From assembly GCA_026710545.1 (NCBI GenBank), contig JAPOQU010000095.1:4932-68931 (forward strand): DNA of 64,000 nucleotides, in the 5' to 3' direction. Within the stretch, counting starts at the first letter, position 1. Each line of letters starts with the position of its first letter. The notes under the pieces were generated by a model. The model searched no databases and was not told where the DNA came from. It worked only from the letters and a program-made list of their open reading frames with translations. Shown here piece by piece: positions 38,276 through 48,728 of the stretch. A program made the position numbers and the translations under genes. The stretch is from Gammaproteobacteria bacterium. GTDB taxonomy: Bacteria > Pseudomonadota > Gammaproteobacteria > Eutrophobiales > Eutrophobiaceae.

Positions 38276-38752
38276 TTGCCTGAGAAGGCGAAGCCGGTGG
38301 GTTATGTCGCGCCATTCTCATCCGCCATCCTTGATGAGATCGACCGCTACCGCACTGTTCTGGAAAGTTATTCCGAGCGACTTTTACCGTTAATCAGGTG
38401 GCAGTCAACGTCCTCCGGCAACGTGGAGGTACTGAATGATACGGCAGATTTCTATCGTTATTTCGATGCAACTCCTCACGCAGAATTCCTGTATGAATGC
38501 GTCAAACGGACAATAGAGGAAGACCTGCCCCAGGAAGCCGATTACCTGATACGCTTCGACGCCGCACAGGCAGCTGTGATGAACCGGGTCGAGATGCCGG
38601 ACCGACTGGCGCAGAATTTAATTTTGTTTGTTCGCCAAAACGGGGGAACGCTGGCGAAAAAACGCCGGGAGAAGGAGTTCAAAGCCCTGACGGATGATGA
38701 GGTTACGGAACTCGAGATGATCATCAACGATGCCTTTGATGGGCTGGACTGA
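38276..38752 (+). pseudogene. probable 5'-truncated Fic-family gene (C-terminal domain only)
   Basis: 158-aa ORF with a TTG start and no Fic HxFx(D/E)GNGRxxR motif. The tail (FVRQNGGTLAKKRREKEFKALTDDEV) resembles, from memory, the C-terminal region of long Fic proteins. Confidence 0.35.
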
Positions 38753-38817: not shown

Positions 38818-39042
38818 TTATCCAGGATAACAGGTCGTAATCTTCCCACCTCGAAAACAACAGATGGTGCCTTTCACTTTGATTTTACACTCGCTCTTGC
38901 CTACGAAGTCAATTGCTAGTTGTAACCTGGGCGTATTCAAAGTTTCCTCAAAGTCCCGGCGGTATCCTTCGACGTCAATTCCTATAATCCGTTCCAGGTA
39001 CCGCAATAAGGCATGGTCAGTGATTTTTGTCGTCTGTTTCAT
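38818..39042 (-). CDS. small phage-associated-type hypothetical protein
   Basis: 74-aa ORF. It overlaps the upstream XRE gene by 4 nt. The N-terminal ITDHALLRYLERIIGIDVE resembles small prophage proteins. Confidence 0.5.
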   Translation of the reverse strand: MKQTTKITDHALLRYLERIIGIDVEGYRRDFEETLNTPRLQLAIDFVGKSECKIKVKGTICCFRGGKITTCYPG

Positions 39043-39986
39043 TGCACATCACCCTTAAGAAATTTCGCAAATAAGTTCTTTAGCCGCTCGTGTTCTTCCA
39101 TAGCCTTGCGCGTCTTGTCGCTCAGTTTGCTTTCAAGCCATTCGATACGCCTATCCCTGGCCTGTTCTGCCATGAGTTCCTTGGGGATATCAGACAGGCG
39201 CACATCGCCATGCTCCAAGGCCCATCGGGCATACTTGGAACTGCTCGTGATTTCATTTAGCTCCTTTCGGCAAATCTGGTAGGGTTCAGTTCCCCAAGGA
39301 TCATCCGAAACACCATATCCGAAATCGACAACGCCGGAGATTCCGAGCTCTTCCGAAAATTTGCATAAATAATCCGCGAACGGTGTAACCTCGTATAGAT
39401 CTTCTCCAGCAAAGTCCAAAGTAGTATCGTCCCTGTTTCTTAACGTATCGCCCCGCAGGTCCGCAGCATCAATGGATTCTTCTTCAGCACATAAACCCAA
39501 CTCGATGTTTGTTTGTTGGTGCGTAAAGTAAAGGTGCTTCCGTTCCTTGCTAACTGCTCTTAGACGTTCCATTGCCTCCTCTACCCCGTCAAGGCACTGC
39601 CGACGCCAAGCTAGGCTGCCTTCGGCCAGCAGTACGAAGAGCAACGGTGCCAGATTTATGAGATCTTTGTGACTTGGACCGTAACGATGCTTAACCAAGT
39701 CGTATGCGAGCTGCACCTGAGAGCTGATTCTGGAACTCAGCTGGACATCCGGCAACAGTAGCTGTTGTTCGGGATCAAGAGGTTTGTTGCCAGTAAGCAC
39801 CATTTGCTCAACTTTCAGTGCATGAGCAAGTCGCTTCACTGTATTTTGACGTACATTGTCGCTGCTTTTTGAGTTTTCAATACGTATAATCTGTCTTTTT
39901 GAAACTTTTGATTCGTTGGCAAGTTTGTCCTGAGTCCAACCTTTCCGCTCACGCAACGTTTTCAGACGTTCTGGACTGATATTCAT
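39039..39986 (-). CDS. XRE-family HTH protein with a ~240-aa uncharacterised C-terminal domain
   Basis: LKTLRERKGWTQDKLANESKVSKRQIIRIE is a classic Cro/C1 HTH. I do not recognise the rest. Confidence 0.75.
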   Translation of the reverse strand: MNISPERLKTLRERKGWTQDKLANESKVSKRQIIRIENSKSSDNVRQNTVKRLAHALKVEQMVLTGNKPLDPEQQLLLPDVQLSSRISSQVQLAYDLVKHRYGPSHKDLINLAPLLFVLLAEGSLAWRRQCLDGVEEAMERLRAVSKERKHLYFTHQQTNIELGLCAEEESIDAADLRGDTLRNRDDTTLDFAGEDLYEVTPFADYLCKFSEELGISGVVDFGYGVSDDPWGTEPYQICRKELNEITSSSKYARWALEHGDVRLSDIPKELMAEQARDRRIEWLESKLSDKTRKAMEEHERLKNLFAKFLKGDVQ

Positions 39987-40028
39987 AAAATTTTCCTCAA
40001 TCAGCGGTTGAAAGATAAAAAAATGTTA

Positions 40029-40130
40029 CTGACGTTTATAATTATAAGTCATTTTATAAGTTTAAATATAGTGACGTTTATGTGTCAAAATGACTTTTAT
40101 AAGATAGTAATAAGTGACTTTTTGTGTCAC
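40029..40130. promoter_or_regulatory. array of TGAC-N7/8-GTCA palindromes and TTTTATAAG direct repeats upstream of the XRE gene (likely operators)
   Basis: CTGACGTTTATA (40029), GTGACGTTTATGTGTCA (40071), GTGACTTTTTGTGTCAC (40114); TCATTTTATAAG (40049) and GACTTTTATAAG (40092). Confidence 0.55.
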
Positions 40131-40172
40131 CAAGGAAAAATAGGTGCTTATAACTAAAGATCACAACCAGAC

Positions 40173-40209
40173 TCCTGATATACGAGTCCTGATATCAAGA
40201 TTCCTGATT
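40173..40209. repeat. three phased TCCTGAT(A/T) direct repeats (14-15 bp period)
   Basis: TCCTGATA at 40173 and 40187, and TCCTGATTA at 40202. Confidence 0.6.
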
Positions 40210-40210
40210 A

Positions 40211-40242
40211 TGTGCTCACTTGCGCTATCGTAAGTGAGCACA
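40211..40242. other. perfect 11-bp-stem hairpin TGTGCTCACTT-N10-AAGTGAGCACA
   Basis: Read directly from the divergent intergenic region. A T-run follows about 20 nt downstream. Confidence 0.6.
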
Positions 40243-40493
40243 CTTTAAAGACTCCATCTATATTTTTTTCAAAAAATAAATCCCGTCCATTCAATTTGTA
40301 CAGCACGGAGTTGGGACAATTGAGATCATTCGGTTTCATGTGCAGGTATTTGACCCAGATTTTTTGACAGGTTACTGTCCAGTGCAAAAGACTTATAGAA
40401 TTGAGGTACAAGACGACATTGCATACTCTGCCTTACATCGATGGTTCTAGCCAAACAGGTCTGTTAGAAGAGTTTCTGGCGCCTCGTCGTTGT

Positions 40494-41105
40494 ATGCGTG
40501 AACCTATAAATGAGATATTCCATGCAGCGGAACTTCTGGACCGCGCAGTAGACGCACATCTCCGTCAAGATCGGAAAACTGCCGAACAACTTTTCCGTGA
40601 GGCGGATATGCCCAAAATTCGAGCTTGGACTGAATCACTATGGGGTGGCAAGCGGGAAAATCCGGAACAATGGCGTTACCATCGCTGGAGAGAAATTCAA
40701 GGTATAGGTAAACCTGAACCAAAAGTCTATGACCGGATGCCAACAAAAAAGCAACGGCTTGAAATCATTGCTCGTGATGGTTATAACTGCCGCTTTTGTG
40801 GAATCCCGGTAATTCCTTTCGAAATCCGTAAAGCAATAACGACAGCATATCCAGATTCTGCATATTGGCGCAGCCAAAAGAACCTCGACCAACATGCGGC
40901 ATTCCAATGCCTGTGGCTCCAGTTTGACCATATCCTGCCGCATTGCTGGGGAGGAAAATCCGTGCCGGATAACATCGTAATTACTTGCGCTCCCTGTAAC
41001 TACGGACGCGGGAATTGGCGCCTGGAAGAAGTTGGTTTGATTGATCCGCGCGAGCGTCCTGTTTACAGAACATCCTGGGATGGGTTAATCCGTTTCACTA
41101 TGTAA
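40494..41105 (+). CDS. HNH endonuclease-domain protein
   Basis: RDGYNCRFCG...FDHILPHCWGG...N.V..C..CNYGRG (HNH/ββα-Me). The ATG at 40494 is preferred to the ORF-track TTG at 40401, which sits right after a TTGACA hexamer (40364-40369). Confidence 0.75.
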   Translation: MREPINEIFHAAELLDRAVDAHLRQDRKTAEQLFREADMPKIRAWTESLWGGKRENPEQWRYHRWREIQGIGKPEPKVYDRMPTKKQRLEIIARDGYNCRFCGIPVIPFEIRKAITTAYPDSAYWRSQKNLDQHAAFQCLWLQFDHILPHCWGGKSVPDNIVITCAPCNYGRGNWRLEEVGLIDPRERPVYRTSWDGLIRFTM

Positions 41106-41209
41106 TAAAGATTTCAAACAAGGATGTTTTAACCCGATGCTGTATCAATGGCTGGCGATAACGTTACGATTTGAGTGACTGACAACGACACCGAGCAGGA
41201 CGTAATGAG

Positions 41210-41869
41210 ATGACGATTGCCGTTATTCTGTGCGCAGCAAGAAAACACAATGATGCGGGTTATTTTCGTAACAGAAACGGCCAGCCAGCCCGGTTTGTAG
41301 CACAGCCTGATTTAGCCCCACTCAGCAAAATATATACTTATGCGAGGCCCGATGATGTTGCGGATGTCAGAGGTACCTGGCGCGAGTTGCTTTCTGACTA
41401 CAACAAAAAAAATCGGGATGCCAATCAGTTGGGTCTTTTGAAAGCCTGGCAACTTTATAGACATAAAACCTATGGACAATTGGTTCGACAACTTGGTGAA
41501 GAAAACGTATATGTCTTGTCTGCAGGGTGGGGTTTGCTCCCGGCAAGCTATCTGACACCCTTGTATGACATCACGTTGTCCTCACTTGCCGAGGATTATC
41601 AACGCAGGAATAAAGGGGATTTATACAAAGATTTGCCATTGGTCACGGACCACGGCAATGAGCCGATGGTGTTCTTCGGCAGCAAATTTTACATTCCCCT
41701 CTTCTGCAAATTGACAGCCCGGCACTGTGGACGCCGCATTGTGTTTTATAACTCGGCTTATGAGCCCTCTGCTCCGGGTTGTGAGCTTGTAAAATTCAAC
41801 ACAAAAGCCAGAACAGTCTGGTACTACGAGTGCGCCCAGGCTTTTATTGATGGTCGCATTTCTCTTTAA
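41210..41869 (+). CDS. DUF6884-like hypothetical protein
   Basis: 219-aa ORF. IAVILCAARKH... and VYVLSAGWGLLPASYLTPLYDITL recall the DUF6884 pattern (ILSAkyGLl...PYD.tL). This assignment is from memory only. Confidence 0.4.
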   Translation: MTIAVILCAARKHNDAGYFRNRNGQPARFVAQPDLAPLSKIYTYARPDDVADVRGTWRELLSDYNKKNRDANQLGLLKAWQLYRHKTYGQLVRQLGEENVYVLSAGWGLLPASYLTPLYDITLSSLAEDYQRRNKGDLYKDLPLVTDHGNEPMVFFGSKFYIPLFCKLTARHCGRRIVFYNSAYEPSAPGCELVKFNTKARTVWYYECAQAFIDGRISL

Positions 41870-41897
41870 TTACAACATCACAAGGAAACCAACTTTC

Positions 41898-42389
41898 ATG
41901 CTCACAGACATTGGAGAATTCATTGTTGGCGCTTACCTTCAACTTGTCGAAGAATGTGATTTCATTGATTACAATGTCCGCCCTCCCGGTGGAGGTTTGA
42001 AGGGACTCAGTGAATTGGATGTAGTTGGCCTTAATTTACATTCAAGTACAGCTTATTTGTGCGAGGTTACAACCCATATTCGAGGCCTACTATATAAAAA
42101 TAATCAAGAAACGGTGAATCGAATCAAGAAGAAGCACGAACGTCAAAAGGAATATGCCAGTATCCACTTAACAAATTTCAAAAAACATAAGTTTATGTTT
42201 TGGTCTCCCGTTGTTCCTGTTGGTTATATTACTGAGCATTTCGATCAAATGGAAAGTCTTGAAGTAATCATCAACGGTGAGTATAAGCGACGCATTGAAG
42301 AATTAAGGGTGCTAGCAAAAAATACAACCCATGATGTTAATAACCCATTTTTTAGAACGCTTCAAATAATGGAACACATGAGAGAGTAA
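41898..42389 (+). CDS. hypothetical protein, possible PD-(D/E)xK (restriction-endonuclease-like) fold
   Basis: Start at the internal ATG (MLTDIGEFIVGAYL). SELDVVGLN...(8)...AYLCEVTTH resembles the D...ExK core, but the Lys is not in the canonical place. Confidence 0.35.
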   Translation: MLTDIGEFIVGAYLQLVEECDFIDYNVRPPGGGLKGLSELDVVGLNLHSSTAYLCEVTTHIRGLLYKNNQETVNRIKKKHERQKEYASIHLTNFKKHKFMFWSPVVPVGYITEHFDQMESLEVIINGEYKRRIEELRVLAKNTTHDVNNPFFRTLQIMEHMRE

Positions 42390-42633
42390 TGCAAGAAATC
42401 ACTGCATAGGCAATATATAGTTTGATCCTACTGCATATTTCACGGTAAACCTGCCGCCCATTTCATTAGCAAGCCACCCATTTCACGTGAAAGCTGAGTT
42501 GGCCGTTACCTGTTGAGATGGATGACGGGGCACTGGTACGGATTCTGGTTCAACGTGAACGGCTATTCTGGGGTCGTGAACACCGATTCCGGTTTCATCC
42601 GAAAAGTGTTCACGGATGATCGAGATACTACTT

Positions 42634-43311
42634 TTACTTACTGATCTTCAGCTTTTCAAACTCTGAAGGAACAACCTCAAAATATTCCTTATCGAAATTT
42701 ATAAATGAGTCGTCATAACATTCAGGCACATAGAATCGAATAAATTCCTCATTTTCCACTAGGGCTTTCATAATCGGCAATGTACACCCTCCTGACAAGC
42801 TCCTTTCGTTTGAAAGCAATTCAGTTTGTATTAAATCTAAGAAGGTATCTGCCTTATGCTTCCTAAACGAGACCCATCGCTTTGTTACTAATTTTATTAT
42901 TGGACCTGTAGTATCAAAATCCCATATCTTCTTATATTGTGCTTCTGAAAATATATATCCACTTATTTGCACCCATCTCACCCAATCTTCATAAATCTCG
43001 GGATAGAGATAACTGCCCGCCCATTTTTGAACCATCAAGACATAGTATTTTTCATTGTTAACATTTACTGTTTTGAACTGCATCTCAATGAAATTTTGAG
43101 TGTGCCGTGACGGTCTATATTCTCGTTTGTCACTTGAAATTACATTGTCATGATCGATCCATTCGCCCAAGGTTGAATTGTATGACCAACCTGTTGCTTG
43201 ATTTAGAACTTCTGACTGATTTTCAAATTTTATTTCAGGTCTGTTCACTCTGGCCTGAGAATAACCATTAGTTGAGATCATCAAAATAAGAGACAAAATA
43301 ACAAACTTCAC
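42634..43311 (-). CDS. secreted hypothetical protein, very AT-rich
   Basis: 225-aa ORF with the signal peptide MKFVILSLILMISTNGYSQA. I recognise no domain. Confidence 0.6.
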   Translation of the reverse strand: MKFVILSLILMISTNGYSQARVNRPEIKFENQSEVLNQATGWSYNSTLGEWIDHDNVISSDKREYRPSRHTQNFIEMQFKTVNVNNEKYYVLMVQKWAGSYLYPEIYEDWVRWVQISGYIFSEAQYKKIWDFDTTGPIIKLVTKRWVSFRKHKADTFLDLIQTELLSNERSLSGGCTLPIMKALVENEEFIRFYVPECYDDSFINFDKEYFEVVPSEFEKLKISK

Positions 43312-43656: not shown

Positions 43657-44037
43657 ATGCGAGGTAACACCCTACGATTAATACCTGTTTTGTTATGTCT
43701 GGCGCTAGCGGTAAGCTGTGATTCCAAGCCGCCGAGAAATCCCTACCGGAGTGAAATCGACTCCTTTTTGCTGAAACCCTGTTACAAACAAAAAATCGAG
43801 ATTGTGGCCAATTCATCCGATGCCTACATTTACGACAGAGATAAACGGAAGATGATGGAATATGTTATGGAAGCTTCAGCAGAAAGTAACGAGGAAATTT
43901 ATGCAAGCTGGTATCGAGCATTGGATGGACATGACCTTTTGACCCGCCTCGGTCTGTTAGAGATGGGCCTGGAAGTCTGCCTACAATCACGGCTGGGAGT
44001 TGACATCGATTTTTCCGCTGACCTATCCGATTACTAA
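43657..44037 (+). CDS. hypothetical lipoprotein
   Basis: 126-aa ORF with the lipobox LALAVSC. Confidence 0.5.
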   Translation: MRGNTLRLIPVLLCLALAVSCDSKPPRNPYRSEIDSFLLKPCYKQKIEIVANSSDAYIYDRDKRKMMEYVMEASAESNEEIYASWYRALDGHDLLTRLGLLEMGLEVCLQSRLGVDIDFSADLSDY

Positions 44038-44632: not shown

Positions 44633-44920
44633 TTAAGTTGCTTTACTGACAGATACCGATACACGCAGACCTGCCGCGTCCAGCATGTTTACAAGCCGGT
44701 CAATTGTAAACCTTTCATATCGTCCTCTGATTACGTCATTCAGGATCGGCTGTGTCGTGTTCAGCCGTTTCGCGGCTTCTGCCTGGGTCAGGCCGGTATC
44801 TTTTACCCATTTTCTTATAGCGATCATCAGTTCCGAGCGCAATTTCAGGTTCTCTGCATCGGGCAGGTTCAAATCAGCAAAAATATTGCCGTCCGAAGGC
44901 GTTGTATGTTTACTCTTCAT
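44633..44920 (-). CDS. higA: XRE-family HTH antitoxin (HigA-like)
   Basis: 95-aa ORF. NLKLRSELMIAIRKWVKDTGLTQAEAAKRLNTTQPILNDVIRG is typical of the antitoxins partnered with Gp49/HigB toxins. Confidence 0.75.
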   Translation of the reverse strand: MKSKHTTPSDGNIFADLNLPDAENLKLRSELMIAIRKWVKDTGLTQAEAAKRLNTTQPILNDVIRGRYERFTIDRLVNMLDAAGLRVSVSVSKAT

Positions 44921-45069
44921 CGTTCACTCCGCATACGTTGCACATCACGTAAAGGCGCAAGACCATGCTGGACACTATCAAGTTGAAAACCTGCATCCCG
45001 ACGGGCAAGTACTGGAAAAGCACAAAGGGATTCGTAACTATCGCCCATCCATTCGATCCGTTTTTCCAT
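44917..45069 (-). pseudogene. truncated HigB/Gp49-like (DUF891) toxin: only about 40 N-terminal residues conserved
   Basis: MEKRIEWMGDSYESLCAFPVLARRDAGFQLDSVQHGLAP matches the toxin N-terminus. The frame then diverges and ends after about 50 aa, against about 110 aa expected. Confidence 0.55.
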
Positions 45070-45121
45070 GATCTGATTATACCAAACTTGATATAATATG
45101 CAACTCCAAGTAAGACATTTT

Positions 45122-45643
45122 TCAGCTTGTACCTGAAAATGAATCCTTTGACAAACGCTCCTCATCGTCAACCAGTACGACCTTTCCTGGCAATTGATTG
45201 CCCCAGCGCCAGAGCACAAGGTTGAGATCGTTCGTTCCGGCTCCCGGCGCGAAGCTCTGAACGCGCATTCCCACGTAACCGGCCGTAATCAGCCAATCAG
45301 CGAGTCTCTGGGAGGCCGGGATAATGCCCGCCAACATTTCCCGTTCCCAGTTCGGGCAACGTAACTCTTCCTCCACTAACCCCCGAGCCTCCAATTGCGA
45401 AGAGTCCAGCGCATCGAAAACAGGTTCGGCATCAACCTCGTAAGCGCATAATGTGATCGGTTGCAGTGGCCGCCCTATCGGGCTGGCCTCTCTCATGGCC
45501 GTAAGCGGTGACAGGGACGTATAAAGCGCGGGGACTCCGGCCCGGTTAAAGCGTCCTCCATAACGGCGCGCCCCTTCTCCCGAAGGCGGTGACCAGTTCC
45601 AGCGCGGGTTATGCGCGCGGTAAACCAGTCCGCGGAAACGCAT
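45122..45643 (-). CDS. RES-domain toxin
   Basis: 173-aa ORF with VYRAH.PRW...GGRFN..G.PALYTS and a downstream E/S. Paired with an Xre/ParS-type antitoxin. Confidence 0.85.
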   Translation of the reverse strand: MRFRGLVYRAHNPRWNWSPPSGEGARRYGGRFNRAGVPALYTSLSPLTAMREASPIGRPLQPITLCAYEVDAEPVFDALDSSQLEARGLVEEELRCPNWEREMLAGIIPASQRLADWLITAGYVGMRVQSFAPGAGTNDLNLVLWRWGNQLPGKVVLVDDEERLSKDSFSGTS

Positions 45644-45658
45644 CAGCAGGACGGCAGA

Positions 45659-46021
45659 TCAGGCGTAGCCGCCGGCCATGACCCGGTCGAGATGGGCATG
45701 CACATCATCCGCCTTGCCTTCCCGCACCAGTTGGTCGGGGGTCACACCACCGAAGCCCGGTAACGGTTCTGCGCGAAACCAGGCATACGCCGCAAGGTCG
45801 GAACCAGTATGGCTTGAGACCCGGTGGAGAATTTCCAGCATTTGCCGCAAACGCGTCTGTGTCTTTGTTGCCCGGATGCGGGAAGCGCGGGAAAACGCAT
45901 CCTGGCCCAGCCCCAATGTATTGGCAATCTCGGTCTTGGTGGTACGCAATGCAGTTGCGACGAGCGCAGGCGAGAACACCTGATTTTCAACGAACTCCTG
46001 GAATTCCATTATATACCTCAA
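45659..46021 (-). CDS. Xre/MbcA/ParS-like antitoxin (DUF2384 toxin-binding domain)
   Basis: AYAWFRAEPLPGFGGVTPDQLVREGKADDVHAHLDRV is the DUF2384 hallmark. The start may be the Met at 46009. Confidence 0.8.
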   Translation of the reverse strand: MRYIMEFQEFVENQVFSPALVATALRTTKTEIANTLGLGQDAFSRASRIRATKTQTRLRQMLEILHRVSSHTGSDLAAYAWFRAEPLPGFGGVTPDQLVREGKADDVHAHLDRVMAGGYA

Positions 46022-46151
46022 GTTTTATAACGTTAAATAACGTAATTATACTTGATAAAATCACAGCGTCAAAGATTTACCGGGAGGATTTGAGTACAAA
46101 GCCTAACAACCCAGGATTCGCCAACCAAGCAAATGTTCAGGATAAAGTCTG

Positions 46152-46577
46152 CTAAGAGATTGATTTAGGGCCTTGGCGGAACAAGGTCTGTCCGGCTTCC
46201 AGCAGGTCATCCAGGTGATTTTCAACCACGTCCACAACCTTTGTGAGATCAATTTTCTTGTACCTGTGCACCATGATGTTGCGCATACCCATGCCCGCTT
46301 GCAGTCTGATTTTCATTTCAGCAGTGATCAATCCGTCTTCCTCCAGCAGGTCAAAGGTTTCAGCGCTGTTCTTGGGCCAGCCGAGTTGCTTCACCCGCAC
46401 CAGGTGGTTGGCCATATCCAACAGGTTTTGAAAGGCAAGCTGCAGGTTCATGATAACGAGCTGTCGTTTAACCCGGTCCTGTTCAAAGGACATGTCGGAA
46501 GGGCGCCTCCAGTCTTCCCGTATCCTTTCAATGCATTCCTTCAGGTCTGCCAGTTTATCAGACAATACCTCGCTCAT
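46152..46577 (-). CDS. hepT: HepT-like (DUF86) RNase toxin
   Basis: The RNIMVHRY (RxxxxHxY) motif is present in this 141-aa ORF. Confidence 0.85.
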   Translation of the reverse strand: MSEVLSDKLADLKECIERIREDWRRPSDMSFEQDRVKRQLVIMNLQLAFQNLLDMANHLVRVKQLGWPKNSAETFDLLEEDGLITAEMKIRLQAGMGMRNIMVHRYKKIDLTKVVDVVENHLDDLLEAGQTLFRQGPKSIS

Positions 46578-46990
46578 GGTTGCGCCGCCCTGCTGCCGGC
46601 CATCATGTCCTGGTACAATGGCTCACGTTGTATATTCAAATCCTGGTGCATGGACAGGACAAGCGCTTCGAATTCCACCCGCGCATCATCATCCTGGCAG
46701 AACACGACCTCTCCGGTGCGAATGATCTCTGCCTGGATGCCTGTGGTTGCCGTTTGGAGATTGACGAGATCCACATAATCAGTGCGCGAGACATAAGCAA
46801 TTTCACCGTTAAGGGTCACCCAGTTCATGAAGTCGACGCCAACGGCAATGTCATGGGGCAGCAGCACGGCGATGTCCAGGTCGCTGTCGGCGCGCTGGTA
46901 GGGCGTCCCCCAGCTGCCGTAAAGGTAAATCGCCAGGGTATCCGGGTACGCGGCCAGAATAGCATCCACAATGCCGTCATAGTTGTTCAT
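46574..46990 (-). CDS. mntA: MNT nucleotidyltransferase antitoxin
   Basis: YLYGSWG...SDLDIAVL (GSx10-DxD). 4-nt overlap with hepT. Confidence 0.85.
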   Translation of the reverse strand: MNNYDGIVDAILAAYPDTLAIYLYGSWGTPYQRADSDLDIAVLLPHDIAVGVDFMNWVTLNGEIAYVSRTDYVDLVNLQTATTGIQAEIIRTGEVVFCQDDDARVEFEALVLSMHQDLNIQREPLYQDMMAGSRAAQP

Positions 46991-47082
46991 ATCAACTTCT
47001 GACTATACCACAAAATCTCCCGCACCCGGCAGGTCGGCCGGCCCCACCGGACCTGGCTGGGCCGGGCTCGTACAGCCACATT

Positions 47083-47169
47083 AAAAAACGCTGTTTAAGC
47101 CTTAAACCAGGCATCTAATCATACTTTTATCCTGCGTAATCAAAGGTTACTTTGGTCCGACCCTGGAGT
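47083..47169 (+). repeat. ~87-bp direct repeat A, copy 2
   Basis: See 44441-44528. Confidence 0.85.
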
Positions 47170-47224
47170 TGCTTTGAAAATATGAATACCAGGCCGCTCT
47201 CTCAGCATTCGATAGATTTGACCT

Positions 47225-47437
47225 CTATTCCTTCTCTTTACGATGGGCTTTGATAGCGCTGATAATATCTTTTGTCGTCATATCCTGAAATAATACTTCT
47301 CGCTCTGTAGTGTAATCGCCATACCCGGACCTGAACTGGTTCAGGAAACGAATGGTATCAACTATGCCTACTTCCCGAATCAGTGCATCAGTTACTTGCT
47401 GATTCAATTTGGAGAGTGGTTGAATATGTGCGCTCAT
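47225..47437 (-). CDS. small antitoxin-like hypothetical protein
   Basis: 70 aa from the internal ATG at 47437 (MSAHIQPLSKLNQQVTDALIREVGIVDTIRFLNQF...). Sits next to a PIN-like remnant. Confidence 0.4.
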   Translation of the reverse strand: MSAHIQPLSKLNQQVTDALIREVGIVDTIRFLNQFRSGYGDYTTEREVLFQDMTTKDIISAIKAHRKEKE

Positions 47438-47618
47438 TGTAAAATCTCCACTCGGTCCGCCGCGCATCATTCGGAATTCGCCTGACCTCGTAATCAAGCG
47501 CCTCTGAACTCAGCAACGAAACATCACCGGTTTGAACACATGCTGAAATTGCCAACACTGCCTCTGCCTCAAGTCTTATTGCGAAAAACCTGGGGTCGGA
47601 CCTGTATAGCCATCGCAC
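47388..47618 (-). pseudogene. possible C-terminal remnant of a PIN-domain gene
   Basis: The 76-aa ORF lacks an N-terminal PIN core. LEAEAVLAISACVQTGDVSLLSSEALDYEVRRIPN resembles the C-terminal half of one PIN subfamily (from memory). Confidence 0.3.
47589..47613 (+). repeat. 25-bp repeat B, copy 2 (CCTGGGGTCGGACCTGTATAGCCAT)
   Basis: See 44240-44264. Its GGGTCGGACC core is the reverse complement of GGTCCGACCC inside repeat A. Confidence 0.75.
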
Positions 47619-47672
47619 AGAAATACTAGCCAGGCTGGATACGTTACCACTTTAATACCCGGGATAGCGAAA

Positions 47673-47706
47673 GGTTGACTTATGGTTGCGGTTGACTTAT
47701 GGTTGC
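47673..47706 (+). promoter_or_regulatory. exact 17-bp tandem duplication (GGTTGACTTATGGTTGC x2) forming a sigma70-like promoter
   Basis: TTGACT (47675-47680), a 17-nt spacer, then TATGGT (47698-47703). AGGAGG at 47715-47720 and a GTG at 47728 follow. Confidence 0.55.
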
Positions 47707-47727
47707 ACAAAAACAGGAGGCCGAAAC

Positions 47728-48177
47728 GTGAGTGCAGCCACGACGATTGGTAAACTCGACCCGGAAGTTGCGGCCGAGCAGATATTCACAGCGCACAAAC
47801 ACGAGGGTGCATGGCTTGATGCCTTCACCGAAAGTCTTGATCGGCGACGCTCCCGCGAATCTTTCGCGCGCACGATCGAGGTCTGGAACCTGAGTCAGGC
47901 CGAGGCAGCCCGCTTCTTTGGCGTGAGCCGCCAGGCAGTCGGTAAGTGGCTGCGGCATGGTGTGCCCCCGGAACGCGCGGGAGCGGTTTCGGACCTGGCC
48001 GCTGCCACCGACCTGCTCGTGTTGCATCTCAAGCGCGACAGGATACCAGCGGTGGTGCGGAGACCAATCCAGGTCCTCAATGGAATTACCCTGATAGATT
48101 TGCTGGCACAGGGCGATACCAGGACTTTGCTGGCGACTTGCCGGGACATGTTCCGGTTCGAACGGGTTCACGCCTGA
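47728..48177 (+). CDS. Xre/MbcA/ParS-like antitoxin (HTH + DUF2384)
   Basis: GTG start after AGGAGG. Has WNLSQAEAARFFGVSRQAVGKWL (HTH) and a C-terminal toxin-binding-like region. Its stop overlaps the toxin ATG (TGATG). Confidence 0.8.
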   Translation: MSAATTIGKLDPEVAAEQIFTAHKHEGAWLDAFTESLDRRRSRESFARTIEVWNLSQAEAARFFGVSRQAVGKWLRHGVPPERAGAVSDLAAATDLLVLHLKRDRIPAVVRRPIQVLNGITLIDLLAQGDTRTLLATCRDMFRFERVHA

Positions 48178-48728
48178 TGGCCGAACTGCTGCGAGAAATG
48201 ATTCCGGATGCTCATGTCTGGTGGCGTATCACCAGTCCGGCATGGGCCGACCCGCTCGACTCCGGCTTCGCACAACAGCAAGGCGGGCGCTGGAACCCGC
48301 CAGGCAGCTTTCCTGTACTTTATCTTAACGAAGATAGAATGACGGCGCGTCTGAACCTGCGCGCCTTTATCGACAAATGGCCCTATGAACCGGAAGATCT
48401 TCGCGACGACACAGGGCCGATTCTGGTAGGTTGCGCCTTGCCGCGCCGCCAGGTCGTATCTGACGCACATTCCCGGGCCGGTGTTCGCGCCGCCGGATTG
48501 CCGGACACTTATCCTCTCGAAAAAGATGGTACGCCGGTTCCGCATGCTCGTTGCCAACTCATCGGCGCACGGGCTAAAGCAACGTGCTTGCGCGGCGTTC
48601 GCGCCCGGTCAGCGCAATCCCGCGCGGGCGCAGGTCGCGAACTGGCCTGGTTCCCCGCCTCCGCTCGTAGCGTGGCCCGACGGGTACAGACTCTGGCGTT
48701 TGTAAGATGGTTTTCAGGGTCAACGTAG
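48177..48728 (+). CDS. RES-domain toxin (second, divergent copy)
   Basis: 183 aa from ATG 48177. WWRITSPAWADPL...GGRWNPPGSFPVLYL and the downstream E/S match the RES domain. Confidence 0.8.
   Translation: MAELLREMIPDAHVWWRITSPAWADPLDSGFAQQQGGRWNPPGSFPVLYLNEDRMTARLNLRAFIDKWPYEPEDLRDDTGPILVGCALPRRQVVSDAHSRAGVRAAGLPDTYPLEKDGTPVPHARCQLIGARAKATCLRGVRARSAQSRAGAGRELAWFPASARSVARRVQTLAFVRWFSGST

Follow-up and report, generated by a model that had tools for sequence, protein, structure and literature searches.

Three open reading frames (ORFs) lie on one strand between 40 and 42 kb of the 64,000-nucleotide stretch analysed here (the window; contig JAPOQU010000095.1, from a gammaproteobacterium of the Eutrophobiaceae). 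They encode an HNH nuclease, a DUF6884-like protein and a third protein, hereafter P3, and raise the question of whether the three work together as one system. The original prediction had read them as a three-gene operon under a divergent XRE regulator and, in view of two putative nucleases beside toxin-antitoxin (TA) modules, as an undescribed defence system. The ORF list confirmed the tightly spaced same-strand genes, with gaps of 104 nt between HNH and DUF6884-like and 28 nt between DUF6884-like and P3, and all three are enclosed by the AT-rich island, a trough in GC content (0.38-0.47 versus about 0.58) at ~38-47 kb. Pairwise dN/dS values of 0.11-0.25 denote purifying selection on each gene and, at 90% identity, their families comprise ~980 (HNH), 47 (DUF6884-like) and more than 1,100 (P3) clusters; family sizes and dN/dS together identify the three ORFs as real genes and not chance frames. 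We consider it likely that the locus is a composite, in which the HNH and DUF6884-like genes form a two-gene cassette (40419-41869), P3 is independent and the XRE gene belongs to a separate unit.

The neighbourhood of the DUF6884-like gene was surveyed in the best 80 of 364 genome loci, from which the counts of DUF6884-like loci given here derive. A window-type HNH gene was found in two of the 80, L005 and L006, which are the closest relatives of the window. Homology to the window at the DNA level extended from 40420 to 41872 in L005, from 40344 to 41872 in a further relative, L176, and from 40415 to 42038 in L006, with 87-90% identity and otherwise unrelated flanks, and the spacer between the two genes lay inside these continuous alignments. 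The dS values of the HNH and DUF6884-like genes were, relative by relative, 0.24 and 0.30, 0.23 and 0.31, and 0.58 and 0.47; the shared block and the similar dS of its two genes indicate that the pair was inherited as one DNA unit. Since a dS of ~0.23-0.3 leaves homologous intergenic DNA detectable, we read the sharp edges of homology as probable recombination break-points.

The HNH ORF, listed at 40401-41105, most likely starts at the TTG codon at 40419 (228 aa), a codon that corresponds in alignment to the ATG of the orthologue in L005 and agrees with the gene predicted in an identical metagenome contig, L001. Its product matched Pfam HNH_5 at E = 6.9e-6 (26.3 bits, under the 27.5-bit cut-off) and PHROG HNH families with E-values down to 5.5e-11, and precomputed Pfam HNH or HNH_5 matches are present in many family members. 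Residues C124, C127, C190, C193, D170-H171, N185 and N194 were invariant in a 42-sequence alignment, and the protein carries the catalytic His and Asn and the Cys4 zinc site expected of beta-beta-alpha-Me nucleases; pairwise dN/dS of its gene was 0.13-0.21. The HNH assignment of the original prediction held. As for the N-terminal region, which that prediction had left unrecognised, HNH core and N-terminal half are both common to the ~980 clusters of full-length relatives, so that the N-terminal half is a conserved, family-specific helical domain, not peculiar to the window copy.

The second gene product matched Pfam DUF6884 (PF21818) at E = 5.1e-5 and 23.9 bits, below the 30-bit gathering cut-off, and a precomputed PF21818 match is recorded for 15 of its 47 listed relatives. 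Two segments, C8-A-A-R-K12 and L103-S-A-G-W-G108, vary little or not at all among 27 family sequences and contain CxxxK and LSAxxG, the motifs by which Pfam curators define DUF6884 (PMC11701544). All the motifs quoted in the original prediction, ILCAARKH and LSAGWGLLP in this protein and ELDVVG and CEVTTH in P3, were found, with CxxxK, LSAGWG, ExD and CEV..H falling in invariant or nearly invariant columns. The AlphaFold model (pLDDT 93.4) had as its top structural match in the PDB E. coli YaaA (5caj; probability 0.92, E = 1.1e-3), with a modest TM-score of 0.38, and the leading matches among viral structures, again with modest TM-scores, include proteins named YaaA and DUF6884 (probability 0.95-1.0). 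The predicted structure indicates that the protein adopts the YaaA-like alpha/beta 'cantaloupe' fold of the YaaA/DpdC superfamily, whose members bind DNA and probably flip a base into a pocket formed by the two conserved motifs, and the Pfam E-value, the motifs and this fold bear out the proposed membership of the DUF6884 family, though below the Pfam cut-off. In annotated plasmid records the three window proteins are rare and labelled only 'hypothetical protein' or 'HNH endonuclease'.

Published work gives some indication of what such a fold may do. The DUF6884 family is a distant relation of YaaA; its B. subtilis member YfjM has, in an AlphaFold3 model, a flipped base beside the conserved motifs, and the protein turned up among the interactors of abasic and ribonucleotide lesions (PMC11701544). 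DpdC, a DUF328/YaaA-family protein (PMC12839542), turns dPreQ0 into dADG within DNA (PMC10164549). The window protein matched the PADLOC DpdC model at E = 2.5e-5, and 26 of 27 family members did so weakly (best E = 1.9e-6). It shares with DpdC the superfamily fold, and DpdC acts on a base in double-stranded DNA within a defence system; the match, however, spans only ~80 residues of a protein of ~300 aa, and nothing points to a preQ0 substrate here. With YaaA and YfjM it shares the conserved CxxxK and LSAxxG motifs, and YaaA is its best PDB match, but the TM-score and Pfam score given above are low, and those proteins have been discussed in stress and repair and not as nuclease partners. DUF6884/YaaA proteins are common and, to our knowledge, DpdC alone among them has a known reaction.

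Away from the closest relatives, the DUF6884-like gene has another usual partner. In more distant loci the DUF6884-like gene is usually preceded by a same-strand ORF of ~235 aa, whose end lies only a few bases from the start of that gene; such ORFs belong to a single conserved family, and 59 of 60 matched PADLOC PDC-M57B (best E = 5.5e-91). In a hidden Markov model (HMM) census, M57B adjoined the DUF6884-like gene in 75 of the 78 more distant genome loci (the 80 minus L005 and L006) and in one viral contig, almost without exception as the immediate upstream neighbour in the same orientation; in many loci its stop codon overlaps the DUF6884-like start codon. The HMM, built from 60 homologues, detected no M57B anywhere in the 64-kb window, and the HNH gene has no PDC-M57B match. 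PDC-M57 (cassette FAM_03160>>FAM_00294) belongs to a set of 145 untested 'phage defence candidates' that were nominated by their embedding in BREX, DISARM or type I restriction-modification loci (Payne et al., 10.1101/2024.01.29.577857). The window cassette resembles it as a small two-gene unit around a DUF6884-domain protein that matches the PDC-M57A model (E = 5.3e-6, 24.8 bits, model positions 23-106 of 138), and 23 of 27 members of the 219-aa subfamily match that model similarly weakly (best E = 3.1e-6). It differs in having an unrelated HNH gene in the slot of M57B, a 104-nt gap in place of an overlap, and a protein of 219 aa whose match to the 138-position model is weak and partial; PADLOC rules would probably not call the locus as PDC-M57. 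On a Deinococcus plasmid (L220, 2960-4070) a different, 141-aa DUF6884 protein is followed by M57B, which makes the link between M57B and DUF6884 older than the window subfamily; this arrangement is probably the one that PADLOC modelled. On a Haloarcula plasmid (L219, 3435-5065), M57B overlaps a convergent HNH gene, with an ArdC-like gene alongside.

The upstream position is not filled by M57B and HNH alone. Within the clade of 84-91% identity, the gene upstream of the DUF6884-like gene is HNH in the window, L005, L006 and L176; in L178 it codes for a DUF6946 protein (227 aa, D...EGK motif), and in L177 ParA and a 137-aa protein stand in its place. L173, a 71% relative, has no same-strand upstream gene. 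L177 and L178 match the window over no more than 41182/41183-41872, from 27-28 nt before the ATG. In Roseomonas plasmids, a protein of 319 aa bearing a D...ELK motif is encoded by an overlapping upstream gene, and these plasmids also have a convergent HNH_2 gene. Proteins with the D...E-x-K motif typical of PD-(D/E)xK enzymes recur beside the DUF6884-like gene or its HNH partner in otherwise unrelated contexts (Table 1). M57B itself is fragmented in L011, L028 and L039 and split in L007, L024, L034, L040 and L042, with the adjacent DUF6884-like gene intact in each; this could reflect earlier decay of the partner, assembly errors, or the choice of loci by DUF6884 score.

In our best reading, the cassette is an 'interchangeable nuclease + DUF6884' module and the window copy represents the PDC-M57 candidate with HNH in place of M57B, the HNH gene having probably been recruited into the slot upstream of the DUF6884-like gene. 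PDC-M57 would thereby be defined more broadly, as a DUF6884 protein with a nuclease of whatever fold, and the link to M57B in 75 of 78 loci, together with the varying partners, makes it a testable hypothesis that this DUF6884 subfamily acts on DNA with a nuclease. At 1.5 kb the cassette is easily cloned.

Type IV, modification-dependent restriction enzymes such as SRA-HNH proteins, MspJI and PvuRts1I combine a base-flipping reader with a swappable nuclease. The likeness lies in one reader being found with nucleases of different folds, here HNH, proteins with PD-(D/E)xK-like motifs and M57B; the differences are that reader and putative nuclease are here separate genes, that the fold of the reader is unrelated to SRA, and that a modified-DNA target is hypothetical. 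By analogy, the DUF6884-like protein would scan DNA and flip an unusual base or lesion, for instance a phage-type modified base, into the pocket bordered by CxxxK and LSAxxG. It would then mark or convert the flipped base, and the linked nuclease would cut the DNA, in a type IV-restriction-like pairing of a reader with a swappable nuclease. We offer this model tentatively, as possible and short of probable, and favour it because no donor-cofactor domain is found and nearly identical DUF6884 genes sit beside unrelated nucleases. More doubtful is its extension, in which DUF6884 proteins would be the base-reading or base-converting subunit of widespread two-gene restriction-like modules whose nuclease is exchangeable among M57B, HNH and PD-(D/E)xK types, with the window copy as the first recognised HNH type and P3 as a new solitary family with a non-canonical active site. 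If true, study of the window cassette could bring to light a new way in which the YaaA/DpdC fold acts on DNA, for instance by recognising or excising modified bases.

The same two genes could instead constitute a restriction-modification or addiction module, in which the DUF6884-like protein alters host DNA or neutralises the nuclease and the nuclease attacks unprotected DNA. This reading draws on the superfamily relative DpdC being an in-DNA base-modifying enzyme of a restriction-modification system, on the occurrence of DUF6884-like genes alone or beside a broken M57B, much as orphan methyltransferases outlive their nucleases, and on the scatter of the pairs over unrelated chromosomal contexts, as is seen with selfish two-gene modules. 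We nonetheless judge it unlikely, though a rival to be taken seriously. No donor-cofactor domain or precursor pathway is linked to the cassette, near-identical DUF6884 genes beside unrelated nucleases are hard to fit with one specific mark, and the HNH family is widespread without such a partner; the M57B fragments, in turn, may be assembly errors, and the loci were chosen for intact DUF6884 genes. The Dpd 7-deazaguanine system was also considered and rejected, as neither DpdA (TGT-like) nor DpdB turned up when the eight neighbouring genes were scanned with Pfam and PADLOC.

A defence role of the interchangeable nuclease-DUF6884 cassette is plausible, given the TA families and a fragment of the PADLOC candidate PDC-S24 in the island and the defence-type neighbours of two relatives, L176 lying beside a ZorA-like gene and L178 beside SNIPE/T5orf172 and TA genes. 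The TA modules noted in the original prediction were confirmed as a cluster at 44633-48728 comprising an HTH_37 antitoxin-like gene, a RES toxin with an Xre/MbcA-type antitoxin, a HepT-like RNase with an MntA-type nucleotidyltransferase, and a second RES-domain protein.

Several observations weigh against the view of the cassette as a defence-related module of nuclease and DUF6884 protein. No anti-phage activity has been reported for PDC-M57 (10.1101/2024.01.29.577857), the match of the window protein to PDC-M57A is weak at 24.8 bits, and Pfam placed 145 proteins flanking the 75 M57B-DUF6884 pairs mostly in housekeeping or metabolic and not in defence families, with no sign that the pair is enriched in defence islands. 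None of the 60 upstream M57B proteins had a significant Pfam match, PDB profile searches with the M57B alignment, like those with the DUF6884-like and P3 alignments, returned no significant solved relative, and hhalign against one UvrC N-terminus, the only comparison of this kind, gave a probability of 0.15%. The M57B motifs GVYFF...RIVRVGTH...LWxRLxQH...ERN may be GIY-YIG-like, in a reading that is ours only; with no Pfam match and an insignificant UvrC comparison, the identity of the partner slot as a nuclease slot is something that we infer. The counts moreover come from 80 of 364 loci, the HNH-DUF6884 pairing is known from only four independent contexts, all close relatives with 83-91% amino-acid identity, and its gap of 104 nt is not the stop/start overlap typical of M57B pairs. 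Most of the HNH family occurs without any DUF6884 gene, on mobilisable elements and plasmids, and the DUF6884-like gene stands alone in L071, L079 and L173 and has recombined alone in L177 and L178, which weakens the functional link.

The last two of these points would be expected if HNH and DUF6884-like were independent single-gene mobile cargo that came to lie side by side in one lineage with no joint function, and the 104-nt gap could hold a separate promoter. The pair has nevertheless been kept as a block in four genomic contexts with matching dS, the HNH gene lies exactly where nearly all of the 75 linked loci have M57B, upstream and on the same strand, and other lineages fill this slot with proteins bearing PD-(D/E)xK-like motifs; we therefore regard independent cargo as quite improbable. 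A promoter scan found no sigma-70 consensus on the plus strand of the HNH leader (40344-40418), which may carry the cassette's own promoter. Promoter and terminator counts were no higher than in shuffled sequence, so that the scan says little.

P3 was the third member of the proposed operon. Its homologues are nearly all 163 aa long, which leaves a longer TTG-initiated ORF from 41847 unsupported, and it had no match among Pfam, NCBIfam, PADLOC or PHROG profiles. The AlphaFold model (pLDDT 75.6) has an alpha-beta-beta-beta-alpha-beta core (H5-16, E22-27, E40-46, E51-57, H69-90, E96-102), and the leading Foldseek matches are mostly of the restriction-endonuclease fold, the best being the R2 restriction-like endonuclease (probability 0.97), with AF1548, Can2/Cdn1, Hjc, BstEII, McrC and FokI among the others. 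The suggested PD-(D/E)xK assignment is borne out for the fold by this predicted core and these matches; the catalytic Lys is replaced by Thr. Residues E7, E39, D41 and E56 are conserved and H60, two residues past the Lys position, is nearly invariant, but the complete D...(D/E)xK triad is absent: the Lys position is T58 and is occupied by Ala or Thr in most of 67 relatives, with Lys in two of 23 sequences displayed, which makes catalytic activity of P3 uncertain. With UPF0102 (YraN), NERD and the R2 endonuclease P3 has the core fold in common; it differs in giving no significant sequence match to them, in the mostly Thr or Ala residue at the Lys position and in an extra C-terminal helical region. 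Weak matches to UPF0102 (8/67), NERD (5/67) and also DUF234 were obtained with diverse members of the family (n = 67).

An exhaustive profile search yielded 530 representative clusters of the P3 family at 50% identity. The members come from many bacterial phyla and also from haloarchaeal plasmids, and many are 70-94% identical to the window copy. We flag P3 as a large family absent from the four profile libraries scanned. Its neighbours are mixed (UvrC, reverse transcriptases, MmeI, integrases, PEPCK, isocitrate dehydrogenase, DUF6308), and in one sub-lineage a DUF6308 gene lies just downstream (6/49 neighbours). P3 as an integron cassette or homing-type element with conserved ends was rejected, as flank similarity was confined to sub-lineages (82 upstream and 69 downstream flanks).

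That the HNH, DUF6884-like and P3 genes form one co-transcribed defence system under the divergent XRE gene is very improbable. The three genes share a strand and short gaps, no terminator was predicted between them, plausible ribosome-binding sites precede the DUF6884-like gene and P3, the locus lies in a TA/defence island, and the gene order was already present in the ancestor common with L006, where P3 survives as its first 47 codons. Against this, tblastn and HMM screens of 85 other genome and metagenome loci with P3 revealed no HNH, DUF6884 or M57B gene, and the three families do not occur together elsewhere, the outcome that the original prediction had named as refuting its system. Among the 80 DUF6884-like loci, P3 appears only as the L006 stump, truncated beside a transposase gene located just downstream, with the HNH-DUF6884 pair intact. 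L005 and L176 keep that pair without P3, homology ending at 41872, and the homology of P3 to L088 and L089 covers no more than its own gene (41884-42389). P3 stands by itself, as one of a large unnamed family with the PD-(D/E)xK fold, and is a bystander to the cassette. Of the defence system first proposed, the two-gene HNH + DUF6884-like unit stands, with a plausible defence role, and the membership of P3 and XRE does not.

Nor did the XRE gene emerge as the regulator of an operon. It is divergent from the HNH gene and 433 nt from the HNH start, has no counterpart in L005 or L006, and the window homology of L176-L178 and L173 stops short of it; it is not conserved with any of the three genes. 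Plasmids of alphaproteobacteria carry full-length homologues of XRE next to recombinase, integrase or helicase genes, in one case with a small downstream gene resembling orf74, the gene that overlaps XRE in the window. With no XRE in related loci and such plasmid neighbours, a role as cassette regulator was rejected, and XRE and orf74 look like a separate two-gene neighbour unit.

The other origin first considered, a prophage-derived homing or packaging remnant comprising HNH, DUF6884-like and P3, is hardly credible. In its favour, phages often encode HNH proteins, PHROG HNH families match the window HNH and phrog_8252 matches orf74, but 2.9 million viral contigs yielded no relative of P3, one of the DUF6884-like protein and only three full-length HNH relatives (36-38% identity), no structural or replication genes lie nearby, the window has no tRNA gene, and XRE had no match in a phage-genome search.

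Table 1 Features of the locus and of related loci. Positions refer to the window unless a locus is named.
Feature	Position	Strand	Remarks
orf74	38818..39042	-	74 aa; overlaps XRE 3' end by 4 nt; phrog_8252 E = 1.7e-9
XRE/HTH_3 protein	39039..39986	-	315 aa; HTH_3 E = 4.6e-9
HNH leader	40344..40418	+	88% DNA homology to L176 begins at 40344
HNH nuclease	40419..41105	+	228 aa, TTG start; proposed cassette effector
Spacer HNH/DUF6884-like	41106..41209	+	in conserved block; holds ribosome-binding site of second gene
DUF6884-like protein	41210..41869	+	219 aa, predicted YaaA/DpdC 'cantaloupe' fold; conserved cassette core
P3	41898..42389	+	163 aa, predicted PD-(D/E)xK fold; neighbour only
IS21-like fragment	42493..42554		62 nt, 81% match
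D...E-x-K protein, L176	5933-7015	-	
D...E-x-K protein, L178	5933-6982	-	
D...E-x-K protein, L006	6083-7042	-	
D...E-x-K protein, L174	2913-3872	+	

Downstream of P3, the 62-nt segment listed in Table 1 resembles DNA adjoining IS21-family istA genes in L088, L089 and L177, a similarity in sequence that suggests a remnant of an insertion-sequence end and past IS activity 3' of P3. Beyond it, two ORFs at 42634-43311 (minus strand, 225 aa) and 43657-44037 (plus strand, 126 aa) have hydrophobic N-termini; they had no match in the profile libraries at E <= 0.01 and are conserved only in identical metagenome contigs.

At the left edge of the AT-rich island, a plus-strand ORF of 158 aa (38276-38752) corresponds to the C-terminal third of PDC-S24 (E = 1.9e-52, model positions 340-490 of 497) and is apparently truncated where the island begins. 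The XRE-proximal intergenic region (39987-40343) contains four GTGACnTTT-type repeats at 40027-40129, three TCCTGAT repeats with 14-15 nt spacing at 40169-40208 and a 14-bp hairpin at 40211-40242, all of which lie outside the stretch common to the relatives of the cassette.

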